From an uncultured Candidatus Saccharibacteria bacterium (GTDB taxonomy: Bacteria; Patescibacteriota; Saccharimonadia; Saccharimonadales; Saccharimonadaceae), in contig CAUOLH010000005.1 in NCBI GenBank assembly GCA_963456375.1, positions 5,912 through 69,911 on the forward strand: a stretch of DNA of 64,000 nucleotides, given 5' to 3'. Made by a program: the position numbers and the translations under genes. Under the pieces are notes generated by a model. The model was not told the DNA's origin, searched no databases, and saw only the letters and a list, made by a program, of their open reading frames with translations. This document shows, piece after piece, positions 42,084 to 63,357 of this stretch (its first letter is position 1; each line of letters begins with the position of its first letter).

Positions 42084-43682
42084 ATGAGACGGCAGATTTT
42101 TGAGACGCTGACACTGGAGAAGATCGTTGGCGGCGGGCAAGCATTAGGAACGCTGGCCGATGGCCGCAAATGTTTCGTATGGGGCGGACTGCCCGGCGAG
42201 ACGGTTACTGTCCGCATTACCAAAAAGAAATCGCACTTCATCGAGGCGATTGTCGAGGAGGTGATCTCGCCAAGCCCCGACCGTATCCAGCCGCGCGATC
42301 CGGATAGTTATCTTTCGACCAGTCCTTGGCAGATTGTGCCGCTCGAGATAGAGCAGGCGTGCAAAAGGCAATTGATCGACGACGCCTTTACGCTGCACAA
42401 TGTTGCATTACCGGCAGCGATTGATATTTATTGCAACAATGTTGCATATGGTTATCGCAACAAAGTTGAATTTAGCTGGTATAGTGAATCAGTAGTGTCT
42501 AAAGAGGTATCTAAGAAAAAATCTGAGCCGGCTTTAGCGAGTCCCGGATCATTTTCTGATGATACCCGAAGGATAGATAATGGTAGCAATCGTGAGAGAC
42601 AATCTGGCGATACACTTGACTTGGCATTTTTCCGCCGCGGCAGCAAGGGTAAGATTGTCGTCGATGGCACAAGTTTGGCACGCCCAGAAATCAACAACTT
42701 GGCGCGGGCGATCCGTGATTTACTGCGCCATAAACGCGTCGCGGCTCGCCAACTCAAGACCTTGCTCGTCCGCTGCGATCAGTCGGGGAGTTGCGTCTGG
42801 CAACTATATATCAAGGATCGCTTGCCCGAAATAATTACCGCTAATGAAGCCGCCACGCTGCCGGCTCAGGGCGGGGAAATTATCTATTCCGATCCGCGTT
42901 CGCCAGCCAGCCGCATCACCGAGCGCTTGGTGTGTTTCGGCAACACCACCCTGACCGACACCATCCTTGGCGTGCCGTTCCGCTACGCCTGCGAAAGCTT
43001 TTTCCAAGTCAATACCCCGGTTTACGAGCAGGCACTGCGCGATATGAAGGAGTGGGTGCCGCGCGATTGCAATAGCCAACACTCGGGTCGGCAGCTCGAG
43101 AACCACCAGAAAAAACCTGAACAGCACGGAACAAACAGTCAGCACGGCTCGTCAAACTCTTTTTCTGAAGGCTTTGCCTTTCCGGCGAGTGTGCGCCAAG
43201 AGCGCCAACTGATTCAGTTAGCGGCGCGCCGGCCTGAAGAGAAAGGTGTTTGTGAGACGGGCGAGCCAACCCTTGATTTCTACGCTGGCGTCGGCACCAT
43301 TGGCCTGACCATTGGCGGCGGCAACGTCACGCTGGTGGAAATCAACGCCGACGCTGTCCGCGAAATGCAGTGCAACATCACTGAGCTTGGCCGCACCGAC
43401 GCCCGCGCTGTCCTCGCTCCCAGCGAACAAGCCCTCGACCATATTACAGGCAAGGAAATCGTCATCGTTGATCCGCCGCGCGCCGGCCTACATCCCGACG
43501 TTATTGCAACATTGTTGCAAAAACTGCCGCCGCGCATCATTTATCTCAGTTGTAATCCCGTCACCCAAGCTCGCGACGTCGCCTTACTCCAACAAAACTA
43601 CCGAATAGTCCACCACCGCGGCTATAATTTTTTCCCGAGAACGCCGCATATTGAACACTTGGTTATCCTTGGTAAAAAGTAA
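42084..43682 (+). CDS. 23S rRNA (uracil-5)-methyltransferase, RlmD/TrmA family, with two in-frame insertions
   Basis: TRAM-like N-terminus, YRNK, SFFQVN, LDFYAGVGTIG, VDPPRAG, YLSCNP, FFPRTPHIE. Confidence 0.92.
   Translation: MRRQIFETLTLEKIVGGGQALGTLADGRKCFVWGGLPGETVTVRITKKKSHFIEAIVEEVISPSPDRIQPRDPDSYLSTSPWQIVPLEIEQACKRQLIDDAFTLHNVALPAAIDIYCNNVAYGYRNKVEFSWYSESVVSKEVSKKKSEPALASPGSFSDDTRRIDNGSNRERQSGDTLDLAFFRRGSKGKIVVDGTSLARPEINNLARAIRDLLRHKRVAARQLKTLLVRCDQSGSCVWQLYIKDRLPEIITANEAATLPAQGGEIIYSDPRSPASRITERLVCFGNTTLTDTILGVPFRYACESFFQVNTPVYEQALRDMKEWVPRDCNSQHSGRQLENHQKKPEQHGTNSQHGSSNSFSEGFAFPASVRQERQLIQLAARRPEEKGVCETGEPTLDFYAGVGTIGLTIGGGNVTLVEINADAVREMQCNITELGRTDARAVLAPSEQALDHITGKEIVIVDPPRAGLHPDVIATLLQKLPPRIIYLSCNPVTQARDVALLQQNYRIVHHRGYNFFPRTPHIEHLVILGKK
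43146..43267. repeat. Degenerate palindromic in-frame insertion in rlmD-like gene
   Basis: GGCTCG..CGAGCC ends, imperfect CAAACTCTTTTTCT / AGAGAAAGGTGTTTG arms, internal AACTGA-T-TCAGTT hairpin. Confidence 0.5.
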
Positions 43683-50189: not shown

Positions 50190-53100
50190 ATGGATTTTCA
50201 CACTCGCTACGCCAAACTGAACGCCAATCAGCGCCAGGCAGTTGACTACATTCACGGCTCGCTCCTAGTGATCGCCGGGCCGGGCACGGGCAAGACCGAG
50301 CTGCTGAGCATGCGCACCGCCCAGATTCTGCGCCAAACCGACACGCTGCCGGATAGTATTTTGTGCCTGACGTTTACCGAGAGCGGTGCTGCCAACATGC
50401 GCCAGCGCCTGCGCCAGATTATCGGCGAGGATGCGTATAAAATCGCCATTCACACCTTTCACAGCTTCGGCATGGAGATTATCAATCAGCACCGGGAATA
50501 TTTTTTTCACGGCGCTGATAGCCAGCCGGCGGACGAGCTGACGCAGCACCAAATCGTGACGGGGATCCTGGAGGGGCTTGATTGGCGTAATCCGCTGAGC
50601 GTTAAAAACAACGGTAAATTCGTCTACACCAGCGAGCTGATCCGAGTCATTTCCGAGTTCAAGCAGAGCGGCCTCACGCCGGCGGAACTGCGGGCGATTA
50701 CGGCGGATAATCAGCGCGCTATCGCCGACATTACCGCTGACATCCAGCAAGTGTTTGCGAACAAAATTTCTAAAAAAACCATCGAGTTATTTGCGCCGCT
50801 GGCAGAGAACATTGCCAAGAGAGTCGGCGAGGGAAATTCTGCGAAAACCCGCGGAGGAGGCACTACAGAGCTTTCTAAAAATGCTGCCAATTCAGCACTG
50901 CATCACGCCGAACCGTCCGCCAATCTACCGTCCTCCATCACCCCGTACGCTCAGGTTCTGGCGCTCAGTATCGCCCACGCCACCCAAGAAGCGATCGACA
51001 CCAACTCCACCAAACCGCTAACCGCCTGGAAAAACAAATGGTGCGAAAAGAACGCCGCTGGTGAATTCGTCCTGAAGGATTTTACCGCCAGCGAGAAACT
51101 ATCCGCCGCCATTGACGTCTACGAAGCTTACGGCAACGTGCTGGCCGAGCGCTCGCTATTTGACTACGACGATATGATTTTGTCCGTCATTCAAGCCTGC
51201 GAAGCCCACCCGGAACTGCGCGCCAACCTACAAGAGCAATATCAATTCATCATGGTCGACGAGTTTCAGGATACCAACTTGGCGCAGTTGCGGCTGCTGT
51301 TTAATCTGACTGACGATGAGGACAATCCCAACATCATGGCGGTCGGCGACGACGACCAGGCGATTTTCAGCTTTCAAGGCGCGGACGTTGGCAATATTCA
51401 GCGCTTCCGCCAGCACTATCACGACCCGAGAATCATCGTGCTGACGGACAATTACCGCTCGGCGGCCGACATCCTGACGGCGGCGCGCGGGGTGATTACC
51501 CAAGGGACGGATCGCCTGGAGAATACCATTGACGGCTTGTCAAAGCAATTGACCGCGCACGCGTCTGGTAGCGGCGCGCAGGTTGAAATCCAGGAATTTA
51601 CCTCGGTAAGCGAGGAGCGGGCAGGAGTGGCTCAGCAAATTGCCGAGCTGATCAAATTCGGCGAAAACCCAGCGCACATCACCGTCATCGCCCGCCATCA
51701 CAAGGAGCTGATTGAGCTGCTGCCATACCTGTACCGCCAGAATCTGGCTGTCAATTACGAGCGGCACGACGATATTTTAGAGCAAGACATCATTCAGGCG
51801 CTGGACAAGCTAGCGCGGGTCGTCGTGGCGATTCATCAGAATAATCTCGATACCGCCAACAGTCTGCTGCCAGAGGTTATCGCTCATCCGGCATTCGGCT
51901 TTTCGGCGCTGGACATCTGGCAGCTCAGCCTCCACGCTTATAAAAATCGGCAGCTGTGGCTGGAGAGCATGCTGGCGAACAGCACCTTTCAGCCGTTTGG
52001 CGAGTGGCTACTAGAGCGGGCGAAGGACGTACCGAATCTGCCGCTGGAGGAGCAGTTGGACAAGTTGTTGGGGCTGGAAGCCGGAACTATCCCTATCGAC
52101 TCCTCTTTTCGCGCCGGGCGTCTGGGGACGCTCGGGCTGCAATCGCTGTACGGAGTCGATAGGGATAGTTCCGGCACTCACTCTGGCAGGGAATTCTTGC
52201 AATCAGCCGGCGAAGAGCCTTTGCTGGGACTCCGTACAGCGATTGCAGCCCGAGCGTCCCCAGACGCCCGGCGCGAAAAGAGGAGTCCTAGTAAAGGCTC
52301 TTCGCTTAATTCTCTCGCCACCCACTACTTCTCGCCAGAAGCCCTCGCTCAAAACCCCGATGCCTACCTGACCACGCTCGAGAGCCTGCGCACGCTGCGC
52401 CAAAAATTACGCGACCGCGCTACCGACGAAATCCCGACGCTGGCAGACTTTTTAGAGTTCATCGACCTACACCGCTCGACCAAAACCCGCCTGACACACA
52501 TCCGCCCCCAGGCCAGCACCCTCGGCGGCGCCATCAACCTGATGACCGCCCACAAATCCAAGGGCCTAGAGTTCCCGCATGTCTTCGTCATCGGGGCAAT
52601 CGACAGCGCCTGGGGCGAGAAAGTCCGCTCGCGCTCGCGGCTGATTCGCTATCCCGCCAACCTCCAACTCCAGCCCGCCGGCGCCAGCTACGACGAGCGA
52701 CTACGGCTATTTTTCGTAGCGATGACCCGCGCCAAAACCACCTTGACCATGACCTATTCCCAGACCAACGACGCCGGCAGCGACATCATGATCGCCAGCT
52801 TCCTGACCGACCACAAGCCAACGATTATCCCCGCCGCCGATACGCCCGCGGCGCAACTGACCGTGGCGCACACCGACTGGAGCACGCGGCTGAGCGCGCC
52901 GATTACCGCGGATCTCAAGGATGTGCTGGCGCCGACATTCGAAACCTACAAACTTTCCATTACGCATCTCAATAATTTCCTCGACGTCTCGCGTGGCGGA
53001 CCGCAGAACTTTTTGTTGAATAATCTGCTGCGTTTTCCGTCCGCCAAAAGCCCCGCCGCCAGCTATGGTACCGCCATTCACGCCAGTCTCCAGCAGCTGC

Positions 53101-53753
53101 ACAACCTGCTAGGCGCTGACCGCCGCCTGCCGCCTACCGAGCGCATTCTCCAATATTTCCGCACATCGCTCGAGGCCCAGCACCTGCTGTCCGACGACTT
53201 TGAACTATATATAGACAAAGGCACGGCGGCGCTGACGGCGTTTCTGGACGCCAAATCGTCCGAGTTTCATGACACCGAGCTCGCAGAACTCGATTTCGCT
53301 CACCAAGGCGTCGTCGTTGGCGGCGCCCGCCTGACCGGCAAGCTGGACGTCGCCGACATTGATAAGCATAATAAAACCATCTTCGTGACCGATTACAAGA
53401 CCGGCAAGCCGTCGCACTCCTGGAAGGGCATATCTGACTATGAAAAAATCAAGCTTCACAAATACCGCCAGCAGCTGATGTTTTATCAACTCTTGGTCAC
53501 GTCATCACGCGATTATGGCAATTTCACCTTCACCGGCGCCCGCCTGCAATTCGTCGAGCCAGATATGAAAACCGGCGACATCCTCAGCCTGGAGGACACA
53601 TTCTCTAGGGAAGAATTGGCTGAATTCGCCCGGCTGATCGGCATCGTCTGGCGGAAAATCACCACCCTGGAACTGCCGGATATTTCTGGGTATTCCGCGG
53701 ATTATAAGGGGATGGTGCAGTTTGAGGAGGATTTGTTGACAGAGGTAGCGTAG
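50190..53753 (+). CDS. UvrD/REP helicase fused to C-terminal PD-(D/E)xK nuclease (AdnB/AddA-like)
   Basis: AGPGTGKT, VDEFQD, VGDDDQAIF, NYRS, TAHKSKGLEF, FVAMTRA; GKLD...DYKTG nuclease motif. Confidence 0.95.
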   Translation: MDFHTRYAKLNANQRQAVDYIHGSLLVIAGPGTGKTELLSMRTAQILRQTDTLPDSILCLTFTESGAANMRQRLRQIIGEDAYKIAIHTFHSFGMEIINQHREYFFHGADSQPADELTQHQIVTGILEGLDWRNPLSVKNNGKFVYTSELIRVISEFKQSGLTPAELRAITADNQRAIADITADIQQVFANKISKKTIELFAPLAENIAKRVGEGNSAKTRGGGTTELSKNAANSALHHAEPSANLPSSITPYAQVLALSIAHATQEAIDTNSTKPLTAWKNKWCEKNAAGEFVLKDFTASEKLSAAIDVYEAYGNVLAERSLFDYDDMILSVIQACEAHPELRANLQEQYQFIMVDEFQDTNLAQLRLLFNLTDDEDNPNIMAVGDDDQAIFSFQGADVGNIQRFRQHYHDPRIIVLTDNYRSAADILTAARGVITQGTDRLENTIDGLSKQLTAHASGSGAQVEIQEFTSVSEERAGVAQQIAELIKFGENPAHITVIARHHKELIELLPYLYRQNLAVNYERHDDILEQDIIQALDKLARVVVAIHQNNLDTANSLLPEVIAHPAFGFSALDIWQLSLHAYKNRQLWLESMLANSTFQPFGEWLLERAKDVPNLPLEEQLDKLLGLEAGTIPIDSSFRAGRLGTLGLQSLYGVDRDSSGTHSGREFLQSAGEEPLLGLRTAIAARASPDARREKRSPSKGSSLNSLATHYFSPEALAQNPDAYLTTLESLRTLRQKLRDRATDEIPTLADFLEFIDLHRSTKTRLTHIRPQASTLGGAINLMTAHKSKGLEFPHVFVIGAIDSAWGEKVRSRSRLIRYPANLQLQPAGASYDERLRLFFVAMTRAKTTLTMTYSQTNDAGSDIMIASFLTDHKPTIIPAADTPAAQLTVAHTDWSTRLSAPITADLKDVLAPTFETYKLSITHLNNFLDVSRGGPQNFLLNNLLRFPSAKSPAASYGTAIHASLQQLHNLLGADRRLPPTERILQYFRTSLEAQHLLSDDFELYIDKGTAALTAFLDAKSSEFHDTELAELDFAHQGVVVGGARLTGKLDVADIDKHNKTIFVTDYKTGKPSHSWKGISDYEKIKLHKYRQQLMFYQLLVTSSRDYGNFTFTGARLQFVEPDMKTGDILSLEDTFSREELAEFARLIGIVWRKITTLELPDISGYSADYKGMVQFEEDLLTEVA
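52080..52175. mobile_element. 96-bp palindromic element, copy A (in frame in uvrD-like gene)
   Basis: Perfect 24-bp inverted arms 52080-52103/52152-52175 around a 48-nt loop containing the CCGGGCGTC/GACGCTCGG hairpin. Confidence 0.85.
52210..52305. mobile_element. 96-bp palindromic element, copy B (inverted relative to A)
   Basis: 24-bp arms 52210-52233/52282-52305 with 2 G-T pairs; 48-nt loop is the exact reverse complement of the copy A loop. Confidence 0.85.
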
Positions 53754-54515: not shown

Positions 54516-55601
54516 ATGACATCATTTTGGGATAACCTGCCGCAGCCGTTTTTTGCTTTAGCACCGATGGAAGCCGTCACCGACGTGGTTTTTCGCCATG
54601 TCGTGAAGCAGGCGGGCACACCCGACGTGTTTTTCACCGAGTTTGCCAATGCCACGGGCTGGGTGCACGCCGGCGACAAGGCCATCGCTGGGCGACTCAT
54701 CAAAACCGACGATGAGCATCCGCTGGTCGCCCAAATCTGGGGTGGCGAGCCAGGTGATATGGAGCAATTTGCCGCTCACTGCACCAAGCTCGGCTTTGAT
54801 GGCATCGACATCAACATGGGCTGTCCCGCCAAATCCGCCATCAAAAGCGGGGGAGCGGCACTGATCCGCCGACCCGACGTGGCAGTCGCCGCCATCACCG
54901 CCGCTAAAACCGCTGAGCTACCGGTCAGTGTGAAAACCAGGCTGGGCTATTCACGCGTTGACGAGTGGAAAGAATGGCTGGGCACACTACTGGCACAGGA
55001 CCTCGCCAACCTAACCATCCACCTCCGCACCAAAAAGGAGATGAGCAAAGTCCCAGCGCATTACGAGCTCATCGACGACATCATCAAACTACGCGATGAA
55101 ATCGCCCCACAAACTCTCTTGACTATCAACGGCGATATCCGCAACCGAACCCATGGTCTAGAGCTAGTCCGTCAACATCCCGGCATCAACGGCGTCATGA
55201 TCGGGCGGGGGATTTTTAGCGATCCGTTTTGCTTTGTCGGAAGCAAGGTGAGCGAAGCATCTTCTGATGAGAAGACTGTGGATTGTTCGCGAATAGCGGA
55301 CAATCCAGCCGAACGCTCGCGCCAAATCTCCAGTGGAGATTTAAGCGAAAAGTGTGCTTCGAATCAGAACGGTGCGCCGTTCGCCAATGCTTTAGAACAC
55401 AAATCTGAACTAATCGCCTTATTACACTACCACCTTGATCTCTTCGACCACTACCAACCAACCCTCGGCCGCCCCTACGAAACCCTGAAACGCTTCTTCA
55501 AAATCTACATTCGCGACTTCGACGGCGCCAAAGAACTGCGCGAGAAGCTAATGCACACTAAAAACACCAGCGAAGTCCGCCAGATACTTGAAAAAATATA
55601 A
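54516..55601 (+). CDS. dus: tRNA-dihydrouridine synthase with in-frame insertion
   Basis: LAPME..TD, IDINMGCP, SVKTRLG, IH.RT, NGDI, MIGRG. Confidence 0.96.
   Translation: MTSFWDNLPQPFFALAPMEAVTDVVFRHVVKQAGTPDVFFTEFANATGWVHAGDKAIAGRLIKTDDEHPLVAQIWGGEPGDMEQFAAHCTKLGFDGIDINMGCPAKSAIKSGGAALIRRPDVAVAAITAAKTAELPVSVKTRLGYSRVDEWKEWLGTLLAQDLANLTIHLRTKKEMSKVPAHYELIDDIIKLRDEIAPQTLLTINGDIRNRTHGLELVRQHPGINGVMIGRGIFSDPFCFVGSKVSEASSDEKTVDCSRIADNPAERSRQISSGDLSEKCASNQNGAPFANALEHKSELIALLHYHLDLFDHYQPTLGRPYETLKRFFKIYIRDFDGAKELREKLMHTKNTSEVRQILEKI
55253..55382. repeat. Multi-hairpin in-frame insertion in dus
   Basis: CGAAGCA/TGCTTCG (55253/55361) enclosing hairpins 55279-55307 and 55324-55342; third hairpin 55367-55382. 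Confidence 0.65.
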
Positions 55602-55700: not shown

Positions 55701-56060
55701 CTAAGCTACTCCACGTTCCAGCTTCTTTAAACGATCCTCGTAATCATCAAGACGCGCGCTATGGCGATTCAGATCAGTACCAATAGCGTTAAGAATTTCA
55801 TTCTGGACTTCTTCATTCTCATCAAGGCGCTTATCTATACTATCAAGACGCTCGTTGATATCGTCAAAGCGCTTATCCATGCCATCAAGGCGCTTGTTGA
55901 TACTATCAAAACGCTTATCCATGCCATCAAGGCGCTTATCCGTGTTGTCAAGACGCCTGTTAATACCGTCAAAACGCTTATTTATCTCAGCAGTATGGCC
56001 GCTCAGCACTGATTCCATCAGCTGTTTTATGTCTGCCAAATCGTCGCTAGTCAAGCTCAT
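55701..56060 (-). CDS. Heptad-repeat coiled-coil protein
   Basis: R[FL]Dxx[DN]K repeated about 8 times; ATG 56060 is 6 nt after TATAAT. Confidence 0.85.
   Translation of the reverse strand: MSLTSDDLADIKQLMESVLSGHTAEINKRFDGINRRLDNTDKRLDGMDKRFDSINKRLDGMDKRFDDINERLDSIDKRLDENEEVQNEILNAIGTDLNRHSARLDDYEDRLKKLERGVA
55820..55985. repeat. Degenerate 21-bp tandem coding repeat
   Basis: Recurring ATCAA[GA][GA]CGCTT[AG]T units at 21-bp period. Confidence 0.85.
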
Positions 56061-56145
56061 GCAAAAATTATAGCACGGCATAGTAACGGCACGCAAATCA
56101 ATTCTATCGCCGTCAAAACACAATTATAACGATAGCAATCCAGAA

Positions 56146-56571
56146 TTACCGCCGTCGCTTGCGCCGATGAAGATCCGCCACTTTCAATCGCACCATGTGC
56201 CGGTCGATGAGCTGCTTGGCTTTTTCGCGCTCGACTTGGTCGCCGGCTTCGTCGCGGGCTTTGATGGCGCGCTCCAGCGCTGCCTGAGTTTCCGCCTCGA
56301 TGATATCGTCGCCGTGGTCGGCCTCATCCACTAGGATTTGCACTGATGAATAATCAATTTTCACCACGCCGCCGGAAATTGCGAAATATTCCAATTGGCT
56401 ATCCAAATCTTCTTTGTGGCGGCGCACAGTGATGACACCGTCCCGCGCAATCGTCACTAGCGGCTCATGACTCGGGAAAACGGATATTTCGCCGTCAATG
56501 GTTGGGATTGACAGCGAATAAACCTCTTCGTCGACCTTCGTGCCAACAAGTGTAACTAATGACAATTTCAT
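56146..56571 (-). CDS. atpC: ATP synthase F1 epsilon subunit
   Basis: GEISVFPSHEPL, AISGG, last gene of the operon. Confidence 0.95.
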   Translation of the reverse strand: MKLSLVTLVGTKVDEEVYSLSIPTIDGEISVFPSHEPLVTIARDGVITVRRHKEDLDSQLEYFAISGGVVKIDYSSVQILVDEADHGDDIIEAETQAALERAIKARDEAGDQVEREKAKQLIDRHMVRLKVADLHRRKRRR

Positions 56572-56573
56572 GG

Positions 56574-58085
<1,512 letters not shown>

Positions 58086-58109
58086 TTAATCTCACTTTTC
58101 ATATCGCAT

Positions 58110-58559
58110 CTATGCCTCCTGATAATCCATAATTATATCCAAAGAATAGCTCTTATCCGACAGCGCTCGACGAGCTGGTTCTATCATATCATCAGGAAAA
58201 CGCAAATTCAGTTTTTCTAAAGCCTCTAACGTCACGAAGTCAACCTGCTGGATTCCTTCTTCGCGCGGGGCAGGATAATCATCGGCAATGTGTCCCAGAA
58301 AAAACACAACCAGCGACATGCCAGAATCAGTATTTTTCAGCAGCACCGACAGAACACCGTCAATTGCAACTGTATAGCCAGATTCTTCCTTCGCTTCGCG
58401 TACCGCCGCCTCCACCAAACCTTCGCCCGGCTCGACATGTCCCGCCGGAAAATTCCATGTGCCTAATTGTCCGTAGTTATCTTTGCCCTCTTGAATAACT
58501 AATAATTTACCGTCTTTTACGACAACAGTGCTGACGAATAGGGTTGTGCTATTCATCAT
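58110..58559 (-). CDS. Nudix hydrolase inside the atp operon
   Basis: GHVEPGEGLVEAAVREAKEESG Nudix box. Confidence 0.93.
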   Translation of the reverse strand: MMNSTTLFVSTVVVKDGKLLVIQEGKDNYGQLGTWNFPAGHVEPGEGLVEAAVREAKEESGYTVAIDGVLSVLLKNTDSGMSLVVFFLGHIADDYPAPREEGIQQVDFVTLEALEKLNLRFPDDMIEPARRALSDKSYSLDIIMDYQEA

Positions 58560-59437
58560 TGTTCCATCGCCTCCACGCCGCCAGAAATTTCCGCCAGCTC
58601 CTGGGTGATCGCACCCTGACGGGCTTTGTTCATCGCCAGCGTCAAGTCATCCACCAGATCAGACGCGTTGTCTGTCGCATTCTTCATGGCCATCATCCGC
58701 ATAGAATGCTCCGAAGCGCGAGCGTCCAGCAATGCCTGCAGTAATCGCGCACCTGTCAAACGGTTCGCCACGGCGTCCAGCACTTCTGGAATACTCGGCT
58801 CGTATTTGGCATCAGAAACCGTATTCGAAACCTCGCTCGGATCGATCAATGCTTTAGTACCCGCCGGCAGCAAGCGCGACAGCTCCGCCGTCTGCACCAT
58901 GCTATTGACAAACCGCGTGTACACCAGCGTCACCGCATCAACCTCGCCATTCTCAAACATGCTAATGGCAGTGTTCAAAATCGTGTGAAAGGTGAGTCCA
59001 GACGGCTGATCTGGCAGGTCCTCGTACGTACCGATAATCTTCGTATCCTTCAGGCGCGAGGCAAACTGCGACGCCCGACGCCCAATTGTCAAGGTTAGAT
59101 TCTCGATACCGCGTTCGTCGTCGCGCTTCAGCAGCTCCAGATATTTCTTCAAGACATTGGTGTTATACGCACCAGCTAGACCCTTGTCGCTAGCGATGAC
59201 GATGATCAAACGCTTGGTAATTTTGCGGCGCTTAAACAGTGGGTGATTATCGGTCGCACCTTGGCTGGCCAGATAGCTCAGCAGCTCCTCGGCCGCCATG
59301 GTGTAGGGAGCCGAGGCCTTGTCCGCCTCTTGGGCGCGGCGCATTTTGCTGGCGGCCACCAACTGCATCGCCTTGGTGATTTGCTTGGTCGAATCCACCG
59401 AGCGAATGCGATTTTTCAACGCGCGGGTATTAGGCAT
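58556..59437 (-). CDS. atpG: ATP synthase F1 gamma subunit
   Basis: ITKAMQLVAASK, SDKGLAG, ASEHSMRM, NKARQGAITQEL. Confidence 0.99.
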   Translation of the reverse strand: MPNTRALKNRIRSVDSTKQITKAMQLVAASKMRRAQEADKASAPYTMAAEELLSYLASQGATDNHPLFKRRKITKRLIIVIASDKGLAGAYNTNVLKKYLELLKRDDERGIENLTLTIGRRASQFASRLKDTKIIGTYEDLPDQPSGLTFHTILNTAISMFENGEVDAVTLVYTRFVNSMVQTAELSRLLPAGTKALIDPSEVSNTVSDAKYEPSIPEVLDAVANRLTGARLLQALLDARASEHSMRMMAMKNATDNASDLVDDLTLAMNKARQGAITQELAEISGGVEAMEQ

Positions 59438-59638
59438 GGTTCTTCTCTCCTCTGCGCCTTTTTTGCCTTCTTAGTCCCTTTAGAACGTGGCGAGATACCG
59501 ATTTCCACATCACCCAATAATCTTGTTCTCTAGGAATCTTTGGACGATGCGTTTTCAATTGAAAATCATTCGCGCTATCTATAGCTCTACCGTAAGAATC
59601 AGCAGCTTGCTTAAATTCAGGCGAATCTCGTCTTAATT

Positions 59639-59642
<4 letters not shown>
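59430..59642 (-). CDS. Small hypothetical ORF between atpA and atpG
   Basis: 70 aa, GTGA overlap with atpA stop and overlap with atpG start; AT-richer than flanks. Confidence 0.45.
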
Positions 59643-61165
<1,523 letters not shown>

Positions 61166-61173
61166 TTTTCCTC

Positions 61174-61719
61174 CTAGATTTTCTTCGCCCGCAAGTCGTT
61201 TAATTTCTTCAAAACCGTTGCGTCCAGCGTTGCAGTTGGCGTCCGTAGTTTGAAACCGCCGATGAGTGCTTGGTCAATTGATTCACGCAGTAACACAGTG
61301 ATGTCCTTAGTACTGTGGTCGCTCGGAACCTCCGCATCAAGATGTTCGACATGCTGAGCAGCGCGGTCGCTACCATCTGTTTCGGGTGCGCGGGCTTCGC
61401 TCCGGGCATCCTTTCTGGACGCTCGGGCTGCAGAGCGACCCTCCACAGATGTCAGCGACTCCATACCCGAGTTAGATGATAGTAGCCGCTTAATTGCATC
61501 CTTTGTCGCCTCGCCCAGCGGCGTTGCGCTTTCCACCGTCGCCACAACTGTCCCGCGCTCAGCCAATTCCACCTCAATATCCCGCGCCAACAATTCGACT
61601 TCGCGCTCATGCTTTTCATAAATCAAGAACCCGGCAATCTCTTCCAGCACCGCGTCATTACCCGCCAAAAGCTGCTCTGCTGCATACTTCGCCAGCTTTC
61701 GCCTGGACACCAGCCGCAT
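61174..61719 (-). CDS. atpH: ATP synthase delta subunit (short form) with ~55-aa in-frame insertion
   Basis: Operon position; VESATPL and ID.ALIGG..DATV motifs flanking a low-complexity insert. Confidence 0.88.
61366..61459. mobile_element. 94-bp palindromic element inserted in frame in atpH
   Basis: Arms GTCGCTACCATCTGT / ACAGATGTCAGCGAC; core TTCGCTCCGGGCATC..GACGCTCGGGCTGCA (61396-61432) matches the uvrD element core. Confidence 0.8.
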
Positions 61720-62262
61720 TTATTCAGCCTCCTTCAGCGCTGTTGAAATCAGCTTCGCATCCTTTTTAGCATCAAGCTTTTCGCCCAAAACTTTGCCAGT
61801 CGCCTCCGCCACTAATTCCAGCGTCGAGTTATGCAATTCTTTCTTCGCATTCGCAACTTCCTGAGCGATTTTATCGTGCGCTTCCTTTATCATCGCTTCA
61901 GACTTGGCGGCCGCTTTGGCGTTGGCTTTATCAACTAGCTGCTCGGCTTCTTCGCGCGCTGACGCCATAATGTCGCCAGCTTCCGCCCGGGCCTTCTGTA
62001 TCAACTCGCTGGCCGTTTTCTCAGCCTTATCTGCATTCTCGCGCGCCGATTTGGCTGCTTTATCAATAGTCTGCATATCTTTATCGCGCTTATCTAAGAT
62101 CGCCAGCAGCGGCGGATAAACAAACTTGCGCAAAATAACCAGCAGCAGCAGGAAAGCGACCGTCTGCAAAGCGAGCAACCGCCAATCAATTCCCAGCGAA
62201 CCAAACAAATCTGCTTTTTCCGGCGCGTCAGAATTGGCAAATTGTGTTAATATTTTCTCCAC
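61720..62262 (-). CDS. atpF: ATP synthase Fo b subunit
   Basis: N-terminal TM (Q..AFLLL..L.KF.YPP) followed by coiled coil. Confidence 0.95.
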   Translation of the reverse strand: MEKILTQFANSDAPEKADLFGSLGIDWRLLALQTVAFLLLLVILRKFVYPPLLAILDKRDKDMQTIDKAAKSARENADKAEKTASELIQKARAEAGDIMASAREEAEQLVDKANAKAAAKSEAMIKEAHDKIAQEVANAKKELHNSTLELVAEATGKVLGEKLDAKKDAKLISTALKEAE

Positions 62263-62278
62263 AATTTACTCCCGAAAA

Positions 62279-62491
62279 CTACATAACTTTGCCGACGATT
62301 GCCGCCACGAAACCGATGATCGCGATCGCGTCAATAAACGAAATACCTAAAACCATCATGGTGCGCAAGTCATTAACTTTCTCCGGATTGCGGCCAGCTG
62401 CGTTCATCGCTGACACGCCAACCATCGCTGCGCCAATTGCCGCAAATGCCGCTGGAATAGCGTAGGTAAGTGTAAATGCTAATTCTTTCAT
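62279..62491 (-). CDS. atpE: ATP synthase Fo c subunit
   Basis: 70-aa helical hairpin, RNPE loop, acidic residue in FIDA. Confidence 0.95.
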   Translation of the reverse strand: MKELAFTLTYAIPAAFAAIGAAMVGVSAMNAAGRNPEKVNDLRTMMVLGISFIDAIAIIGFVAAIVGKVM

Positions 62492-62523
62492 ATAATTTCT
62501 CCTTTATTTAATACTTTACTTTT

Positions 62524-63357
62524 CTAATCATTCTCCGCCGCTATATTTTTAGCTTGAACAGATGAATGAGCACGATCAGCCGGCTCGTCTGCATCGTGGT
62601 GAGCCAATCCCAGGGAAATAAATACAGTTGACAACATAAAGAAAATATACGCCTGAATGCCGCCGATAAACAATTCAAACAAATAGAACGGCTGCAGCGC
62701 TGCCGGCGACGCCAGTTTCGCCATATACGCGATAACCGCCAGCAAAATCTCGCCGGCAAACACATTGCCAAACAGCCGGAAGCTCAAGCCAAGCATCCGC
62801 GAAAATTCCGCTACCAGCTCCAGAATGCCAACGAAAGACATAATCGGATCTTTCAAAGGATTCACAAAATAACGGCCCATATTTCCCTTAAAACCAAGAT
62901 ATTTGAAAGCGTAAACCTGCACCGCCACAATCGTCACAATTGCCAGTCCAAACGTCATATTAAGATCTGCTACGCCGCCGCGGAACAGGGGAGTGCCATG
63001 CCCGCCAATGGTAATCGGACCGACGACCGGCAGCAGCCCTAGCCAATATTGCGCAACGATGAAAAAGAATATAGTGATACATAGCGGCGCTACCCGGCGC
63101 GCCCATTTCTGGTCAGGGATAACCTGGCCAACCGTTTTATATAACCCGTCAAATGTCCAGTTCATCAAGCGCGTCATAAAAGTAGGCTTTTTCTTACCCA
63201 GCGCTGCCGCGCGCGTTCGGAACATCAGCCATATCAGAACAACCAAACCAACGATGCCAAGCATGTGCGAATTAGTAATCGGGAAGCCGAACACATTAAA
63301 AACCTCGTCGGCTTTGACCGAAATATGCAAACCAGCGTTCGCCATACTGTCAATCAT
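62524..63357 (-). CDS. atpB: ATP synthase Fo a subunit
   Basis: LSFRLFGNVFAGE, IQAYIF. Confidence 0.97.
   Translation of the reverse strand: MIDSMANAGLHISVKADEVFNVFGFPITNSHMLGIVGLVVLIWLMFRTRAAALGKKKPTFMTRLMNWTFDGLYKTVGQVIPDQKWARRVAPLCITIFFFIVAQYWLGLLPVVGPITIGGHGTPLFRGGVADLNMTFGLAIVTIVAVQVYAFKYLGFKGNMGRYFVNPLKDPIMSFVGILELVAEFSRMLGLSFRLFGNVFAGEILLAVIAYMAKLASPAALQPFYLFELFIGGIQAYIFFMLSTVFISLGLAHHDADEPADRAHSSVQAKNIAAEND

Follow-up and report, generated by a model that had tools for sequence, protein, structure and literature searches.

A low-copy Saccharimonadales hairpin repeat carried in frame by a loop of ATP synthase subunit delta and its likely remodelling

How did a long hairpin come to lie within the coding sequence of an ATP synthase subunit, and does it belong to a dispersed family of elements? 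This question is raised by the atpH gene of an uncultured Candidatus Saccharibacteria bacterium (genome of 932 kb in 28 contigs, 98% complete), located in a 64,000-nucleotide stretch of DNA, hereafter the window. An earlier note on this DNA had proposed that an element shared with a nearby helicase gene was inserted into a surface loop of AtpH.

The atpH insert and its alleles

The 181-amino acid open reading frame at positions 61174..61719 of the reverse strand is flanked by atpF and atpA, matches the Pfam family OSCP (E 1e-9) and retrieves delta/OSCP chains as the first 44 rows of a fold search; operon position, Pfam match and fold identify it as atpH. Its segment SNSGMES...DHSTK (residues 82-138) had been read as an insert of about 55 amino acids. 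This length holds in comparison with the shortest alleles of relatives (125-127 aa; net gain of 54-56 codons) but not with the nearest empty alleles, L057-L059 (132 aa; net gain of 49 codons). The insert is composite, as the 49 codons comprise 30 codons of the element, a 48-bp piece of another insertion allele and three further codons. The element insert proper (61384..61473, reverse strand, N83-P112), delimited by comparison with the empty alleles L057-L059 and the 162-aa alleles L051 and L053, carries its core antisense to atpH. Allele comparison traces the 48-bp piece (61317..61364, reverse strand, R119-D134) to the 168-aa insertion allele (L005, L049), of which it represents the orphan arm together with the tail; it is bounded by 7-bp direct repeats (61317-61323 and 61365-61371). 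Judged from these comparisons, the window allele combines parts of two insertion alleles in a mosaic. Even without an insert AtpH is short, at 125-133 aa compared with about 175-180 aa in solved bacterial chains, and within the atp operon (56146-63357) a Nudix-like open reading frame (58110-58559, named by eye) separates atpG from atpD.

The postulated empty allele is present among relatives. The gene was found in 118 of the 131 genomes of the genus, and among 57 frames parsed from 72 fetched loci, 27 encode 125-133 aa, 29 contain the core and one contains another insert; as the loci were the best matches to a filled query, these counts are not frequencies. L056 is one further filled allele beyond the 57. 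About ten length classes were distinguished, and every allele read is in frame without stops. Since the 161-aa and 162-aa classes have both outer junctions in common, they point to one insertion that was later inverted. The 168-aa class and L056 have a different inner stem and may represent a second insertion. In the metagenome allele L279 the 48-bp piece is joined to the front of the 161-aa class, which indicates that the modules recombine. Start and end types are reshuffled across alleles, in accord with the natural competence demonstrated in a relative (available part of PMC10633639), and the inner hairpin is deleted in L050 and L054. An independent insertion at atpH is borne out insofar as the element has its own site there, but not as a fresh private event: it is common to many congeners and has since been flipped, deleted and recombined. 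Unlike a MITE, the element shows no target-site duplication relative to the empty atpH and leuS alleles, although such a duplication could have been erased by later remodelling.

In an AlphaFold2 model of AtpH (mean pLDDT 65.7, pTM 0.46), residues 85-137, between helix 70-82 and strand 141-148, mostly have pLDDT values below 50, as would be expected of any insert given the shallow alignment of 34 rows. The insert is thus predicted to be a disordered loop peptide, in agreement with the original proposal, and frame keeping suggests that it is likely translated as part of AtpH. The two RNA runs examined derive from other atpH alleles: X15 contains one shorter by 147 bp, and X10 stops before the insert. 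A 460-bp contig from one DNA run, which may be the source sample, is identical to the window over 61228-61687.

Among 16 alleles of 178 aa, pN/pS was 0.67 in the element, as opposed to 0.13-0.31 in the host parts of atpH, which are under purifying selection. Synonymous diversity of the insert was low (8 changes on 25 sites). Since the core is read in five of the six frames in long host frames and pN/pS is high in the element, no particular insert peptide seems to be under selection. The description of atpH as an important gene is weakened by Tn-seq of S. epibionticum in co-culture, in which, according to the available part of PMC10633639, all ATP synthase subunits were dispensable and the 381-bp delta gene was scored non-essential (Table S1), though the purifying selection on the host parts speaks for the gene.

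A hairpin family at dispersed loci

The 94-bp hairpin at 61366-61459 withstood randomization. As RNA it folds with -49.7 kcal/mol on the forward and -51.6 kcal/mol on the reverse strand (z of -4.9 and -6.3; 0 of 300 shuffles each), and as DNA with z of -4.3 and -3.9 (0 of 300 and 1 of 300 shuffles). The lowest-energy fold of a wider 191-nt mRNA stretch pairs otherwise and stands out less from shuffled sequence (z -1.83, 9 of 200 shuffles). Alignment and covariance model define the family core at 61396..61432 of the forward strand, which consists of TTCGC, one bulged base, a variable stem-loop with a conserved G.T pair, and GCTGCA. This GC-rich core is stop-free in all six frames.

The reported match between the atpH and helicase cores also held. 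A 15-mer of the core is exact at 52127 (+), 52244 (-) and 61418 (+), and the two cores align over 30/37 positions (BLAST E 0.012 against the genome) with a local score of 37, compared with at most 29 in 60 shuffles. Taken alone, this match is modest. A covariance model, built partly from the genome's own copies, assigned four strong hits to the genome (E <= 8e-13) and no others, the next match having an E of 0.17; one lies in atpH, two in the helicase gene and one between rplJ and rplL (contig C6). The atpH and helicase copies belong to one dispersed family and occupy separate insertion sites. In the relatives' atpH alleles L048 and L052, the 34-bp core is identical to the helicase core of the window. 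Shuffle scores, stem covariation and the covariance model led us to reject a chance match.

The helicase host is indeed a separate site about 9 kb off, but it is not a plain uvrD. The gene at 50190..53753 of the forward strand encodes an 1187-aa fusion of a UvrD-type helicase to a PD-(D/E)XK nuclease, with an AddA/AdnA-like architecture. Copy 1 (52080..52175, forward strand, core 52108-52141) has perfect 24-bp arms around a 48-bp inner part, and copy 2 (52210..52305, reverse strand, core 52244-52277) has different 24-bp arms. In 30 of 31 loci the helicase loop was between 24 and 101 aa long and contained copies that were single or double, direct or inverted; the loop parser recognises in-frame alleles only, yet no stop occurred within the gene-strand matches listed. 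A further apparent insert of about 40 aa was seen by eye in the same gene (50810-50930), for which neither a second copy in the genome nor a long stem was found.

Within the genus, a strict pattern occurred in 35 of 131 genomes with one to four copies each, and its reversed control in none. The strict pattern gave only three loci in the genus, a count that was discarded when the model yielded a fourth in G006, G051 and G106. A looser pattern matched 21 of 401 genomes of the order, with 4 control hits, and the covariance model found one to five copies in 28 of 151 genomes of the class, of which 27 belong to the genome's own order and one is a weak match outside it. The exact pattern retrieved 65 loci from GTDB, mostly Saccharibacteria and none titled Rickettsia. 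The non-Patescibacteria matches among those listed fell mostly in ordinary frames and lacked the inner stem; they were set aside as chance matches, as were six hits of the loose pattern. Rfam covariance models run on 15 loci at E <= 1 matched just two tRNAs and an L10 leader, with no match for the element.

In 27 distinct cores, picked for having a stem, the flanks and the stem base are fixed, 23 retain the G.T pair, and variation is confined to the distal stem; pairing reached 96.3% against 73.7% after shuffling and covariation 0.565 against 0.122, with 72 two-sided changes. Two subtypes emerged from a survey of 49 of the 54 model hits. The armed subtype lies mostly in frame inside genes, its hosts being cysS, leuS, dus, dnaX, a pseudouridine synthase gene, rnhB-yraN, tsaD, mutM, an RlmD-like gene and an ABC-F gene, while the armless double-hairpin subtype is intergenic and often located by tRNA genes. 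One subtype has a 5-bp terminal repeat; a cognate IS was not found.

Armless copies (L313, L336, L339, L349, L350, L358, L360, L364, L316, L348) have an additional 5-prime hairpin and a pyrimidine tail mirroring it (9/9 in L358, L360 and L364), which possibly forms a triple helix; they often lie 6-12 nt upstream of tRNA 5-prime ends, and some are bounded by direct repeats of about 30 bp.

Other inserts were also noted. In L428 and L429, entire domains of about 175 and 116 aa are inserted into the leuS loop in which the element lies elsewhere. A further in-frame hairpin family of about 86 bp has six clear copies in both orientations, in dus (window 55273-55358), ABC-F, leuS, rnhB-yraN, topA and one unassigned frame (G000:C5:72981, C3:11014, C3:46279, C20:2599, C2:8123; hosts except dus named by eye); in other genomes, its loop in dus is taken by the atpH family. 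Two more in-frame hairpin families with two copies each lie at 42509-42569 and 43146-43268, both in a 534-aa RlmD-like gene, with partner copies in topA and an ABC-F gene (G000:C2:8270, C5:73209); this placement suggests that several families gather in the same few loops. Finally, a 140-aa open reading frame of the reverse strand (55701-56123) is built from 21-bp tandem repeats encoding a heptad, likely a coiled coil.

Host-derived arms and flipped cores

The arms of the hairpin had been described as unrelated, which is too simple for atpH. The outer arm at 61366-61380 is host-derived (codons T114-D118, whose homologue in the empty allele reads T-N-A-S-D), and the opposite arm at 61445..61459 is an inverted copy of these adjacent codons, as seen from the fold and from a 12/15 match to the flank of the empty allele L058 at the insertion site, where the next best place in the gene gives 8/15. 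Of 13 161-aa-type alleles, ten agree at 13-15 of 15 positions between the host 15-mer upstream and the opposite arm, in two concerted variants; the arms of the remaining three are mismatched (9-10/15), and we read these alleles as recombinants. At leuS, three filled alleles mirror the conserved E-I-E/D-F codons ahead of the loop, each in its own spelling, and the arm occupies the place of native loop residues in empty alleles. A host origin of the arms could not be shown at the helicase, dus and pseudouridine synthase sites. A polarity rule, by which host sequence 5-prime of the element is always the template of its 3-prime arm, fits atpH but failed at leuS L270 and cysS L116. Over 26 arm pairs, whose copies are non-independent, 58 G.T wobble pairs lay on the strand opposite the core and 29 on the core strand.

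The core itself is found in both orientations. Of the 29 genome alleles of atpH, 22 have it antisense and 7 sense, and the 34 metagenome copies divide into 23 antisense and 11 sense. The inner 48 bp of helicase copy 1 match the reverse complement of L214 at 46/48 positions but the direct strand at only 12/48, between identical 24-bp arms. Both orientations also occur among relatives at rplJ-rplL, and one leuS site is sense in L235 and L317 and antisense in L270. Between rplJ and rplL the core measures 31, 35 or 38 bp, none a multiple of three, as opposed to 33 or 36 bp in genes. Core flips at four loci, the use of five frames, host-copied arms and a mosaic allele go beyond the earlier note.

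The flips are unlikely to be assembly artefacts, as the atpH arms are only 14-15 bp long and contain mismatches, sense and antisense alleles differ beyond the flip, and both types occur in single-contig genomes (G006 sense, G048-G054 antisense). A fixed chromosomal orientation of the copies was not seen, both strands being used within single genomes.

Arm homogenisation and spacer inversion, both present between these alleles, are described outcomes of template switching by polymerase (available parts of PMC8604942 and PMC5941160), which likely acts on these arms and cores. Neither MutS nor SbcD_C was found in the 98% complete genome, and their absence would favour template switching. Recurrent flips and arms encoding conserved residues are likewise shared with coding inverted repeats, including the coding palindromes of Nematomorpha, as far as described in the available parts of PMC8604942, PMC5941160 and PMC6649704. 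In contrast to yeast template switching, where the inverted spacers given in these sources are 2-5 bp long, 48-60 bp are flipped in frame here, since the spacer is a mobile, stop-free core.

Origin of the element and rival explanations

We consider it probable that the atpH insert is a low-copy Saccharimonadales hairpin repeat, lying in frame in a loop of AtpH, which is likely non-autonomous and selfish, likely translated as a predicted disordered peptide, and likely remodelled by template switching and recombination. A core of 35-50 bp recurs at unrelated loci, its flanks fixed, the base of its stem bulged and the distal stem free to vary. Bulged single-stranded hairpins resemble the substrates of HUH/Y1 transposases. 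If the explanation as a whole holds, we lean slightly towards copying of the core in trans by an enzyme that recognises such a hairpin, with the element probably inert in this genome. Genic copies would persist only if they add whole codons to a permissive loop, as the reading frames suggest. The arm pattern could then be accounted for by fold-back of the nascent strand, which would write neighbouring host codons into the opposite arm, and the flips by sister-strand switching, which would turn the core over between the arms. Homologous recombination, likely following natural transformation, would have mixed insertion alleles to give the 181-aa mosaic.

The search for a mobilising enzyme produced no linked candidate. 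Y1 transposases are absent from the genome itself and from five carrier genomes; in the order they are common, with over 200 matches spread across 112 of 401 genomes (a tally that includes the unpublished G410, G439 and G369), and the core was near none of the best 30 of these loci. Y1/RAYT enzymes were therefore rejected as mobilisers, all the more as those genes own separate perfect palindromes; about 205-aa Y1 transposases (L376-L395) have such palindromes on both sides, resembling TIRYT cassettes. GIY-YIG enzymes are a lead only: in two of 30 GIY-YIG loci an armless copy lay close by, each time in the vicinity of tRNA or RNase P genes, which this subtype favours as well, and none of the 218 loci of the element search contained a GIY-YIG frame. 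Separately, a small GIY-YIG gene at L424:1430-1740 lies inside an apparent RNase P RNA gene (by eye) between 19-bp perfect inverted repeats, with a similar arrangement in L401, and the GIY-YIG gene of L416 adjoins a duplicated tRNA 5-prime end. A phage source was discarded after a viral search returned 0 hits.

Might the core spread with no dedicated enzyme at all, through rare ectopic template switches or the uptake of transforming DNA guided by microhomology, mostly to nearby loci, its stems staying paired solely through template-switch repair? The missing mobiliser would fit, as would the one to five copies per genome, the apparent closeness of many copies (9 kb apart in this genome, 6 kb in G388 and 2.6 kb in G186), the competence of a relative (available part of PMC10633639) and the failure to find MutS. 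However, template switching would be expected to remove the bulge and the G.T pair. Both are nevertheless kept across many families together with the unpaired flanks, which argues for recognition by some enzyme, and the host genes cluster as well. We regard enzyme-free spread as improbable.

Strong covariation, the fixed internal loop and the low synonymous diversity of the insert, as well as the frequent position of armless copies just upstream of tRNA genes with a tail mirroring the first stem, could reflect a host-selected cis-acting RNA, such as a pause site or a stability or processing signal, recruited into genes. Such a signal would hardly be expected in either orientation at one site, nor to be missing from close relatives; because the bulge and G.T pair are strand-specific, one orientation would lack them, the inner hairpin is deleted in two alleles, and the 15 loci had no Rfam match for the element. 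We regard a host RNA signal as very improbable, although the low synonymous diversity and the conserved G.T pair count somewhat against the preferred reading of a selfish hairpin, as they also fit selection on an RNA structure.

Translational bypass elements occur in fungal mitochondria, and long closing stems could draw the flanks together, but removal of the element from the product as a hairpin intron or by bypass, giving an AtpH of empty length, is highly implausible, as all alleles read at atpH and the helicase keep the frame without stops, the intergenic copy takes frame-breaking indels that genic copies do not, and the junctions have no common splice or take-off motif.

With the selfish hairpin as the preferred reading, the closest known likeness is to the RPEs of Rickettsia (Ogata et al. 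2000, 2002), palindromic repeats in frame in genes, as summarised in the available parts of PMC10969869 and PMC3184786. Both are dispersed palindromic repeats of about 100-150 bp, in frame in unrelated housekeeping genes of a reduced genome as well as intergenic, and without known mobiliser; the element is likely RPE-like. They differ in copy number (4 here, 44 reported for RPE) and in phylum, and unlike the RPE, for which the accessible text of PMC10969869 gives a conserved peptide encoded in one frame, the element uses five frames with a pN/pS of 0.67, has locus-private arms drawn from host codons and a core that flips at a site. With REP/REPIN sequences, as described in the available part of PMC3733652, it shares a short imperfect hairpin core (20-40 bp), an inverted doublet at the helicase and a preference of intragenic copies for DNA repair and tRNA/rRNA enzymes. 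In contrast to the REPs of that source, it has no unpaired terminal GTAG/CGTC tag, its CGTC being paired and not conserved, and unlike REP-RAYT systems it is low in copy number and does not flank the Y1 genes checked. A literature search, mostly without subscription papers, found no description of such elements for Saccharibacteria.

A bolder possibility, which we hold to be doubtful, is that a hairpin seed recognised by a Saccharimonadales enzyme settles in protein loops, builds its arms from host codons and flips in living populations, acting as a reversible switch between unrelated 30-residue loop peptides. If true, ultra-small bacteria would possess a sequence switch that needs no recombinase and that gives rise to new protein sequence.

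The origin, spread and change of coding palindromes such as RPEs have so far been untested, since those in Rickettsia are old and have become fixed. In the present case, close relatives differ at one and the same loop, which is found empty, with the core sense or antisense, with a deletion, or as a mosaic. Because a relative with an empty allele is cultured and naturally transformable, and atpH is dispensable in culture (available part of PMC10633639), allele swaps, flip rates and translation should be directly measurable. In practical terms, core genes of Saccharibacteria that carry such inserts give distorted gene lengths, alignments and tests of selection.
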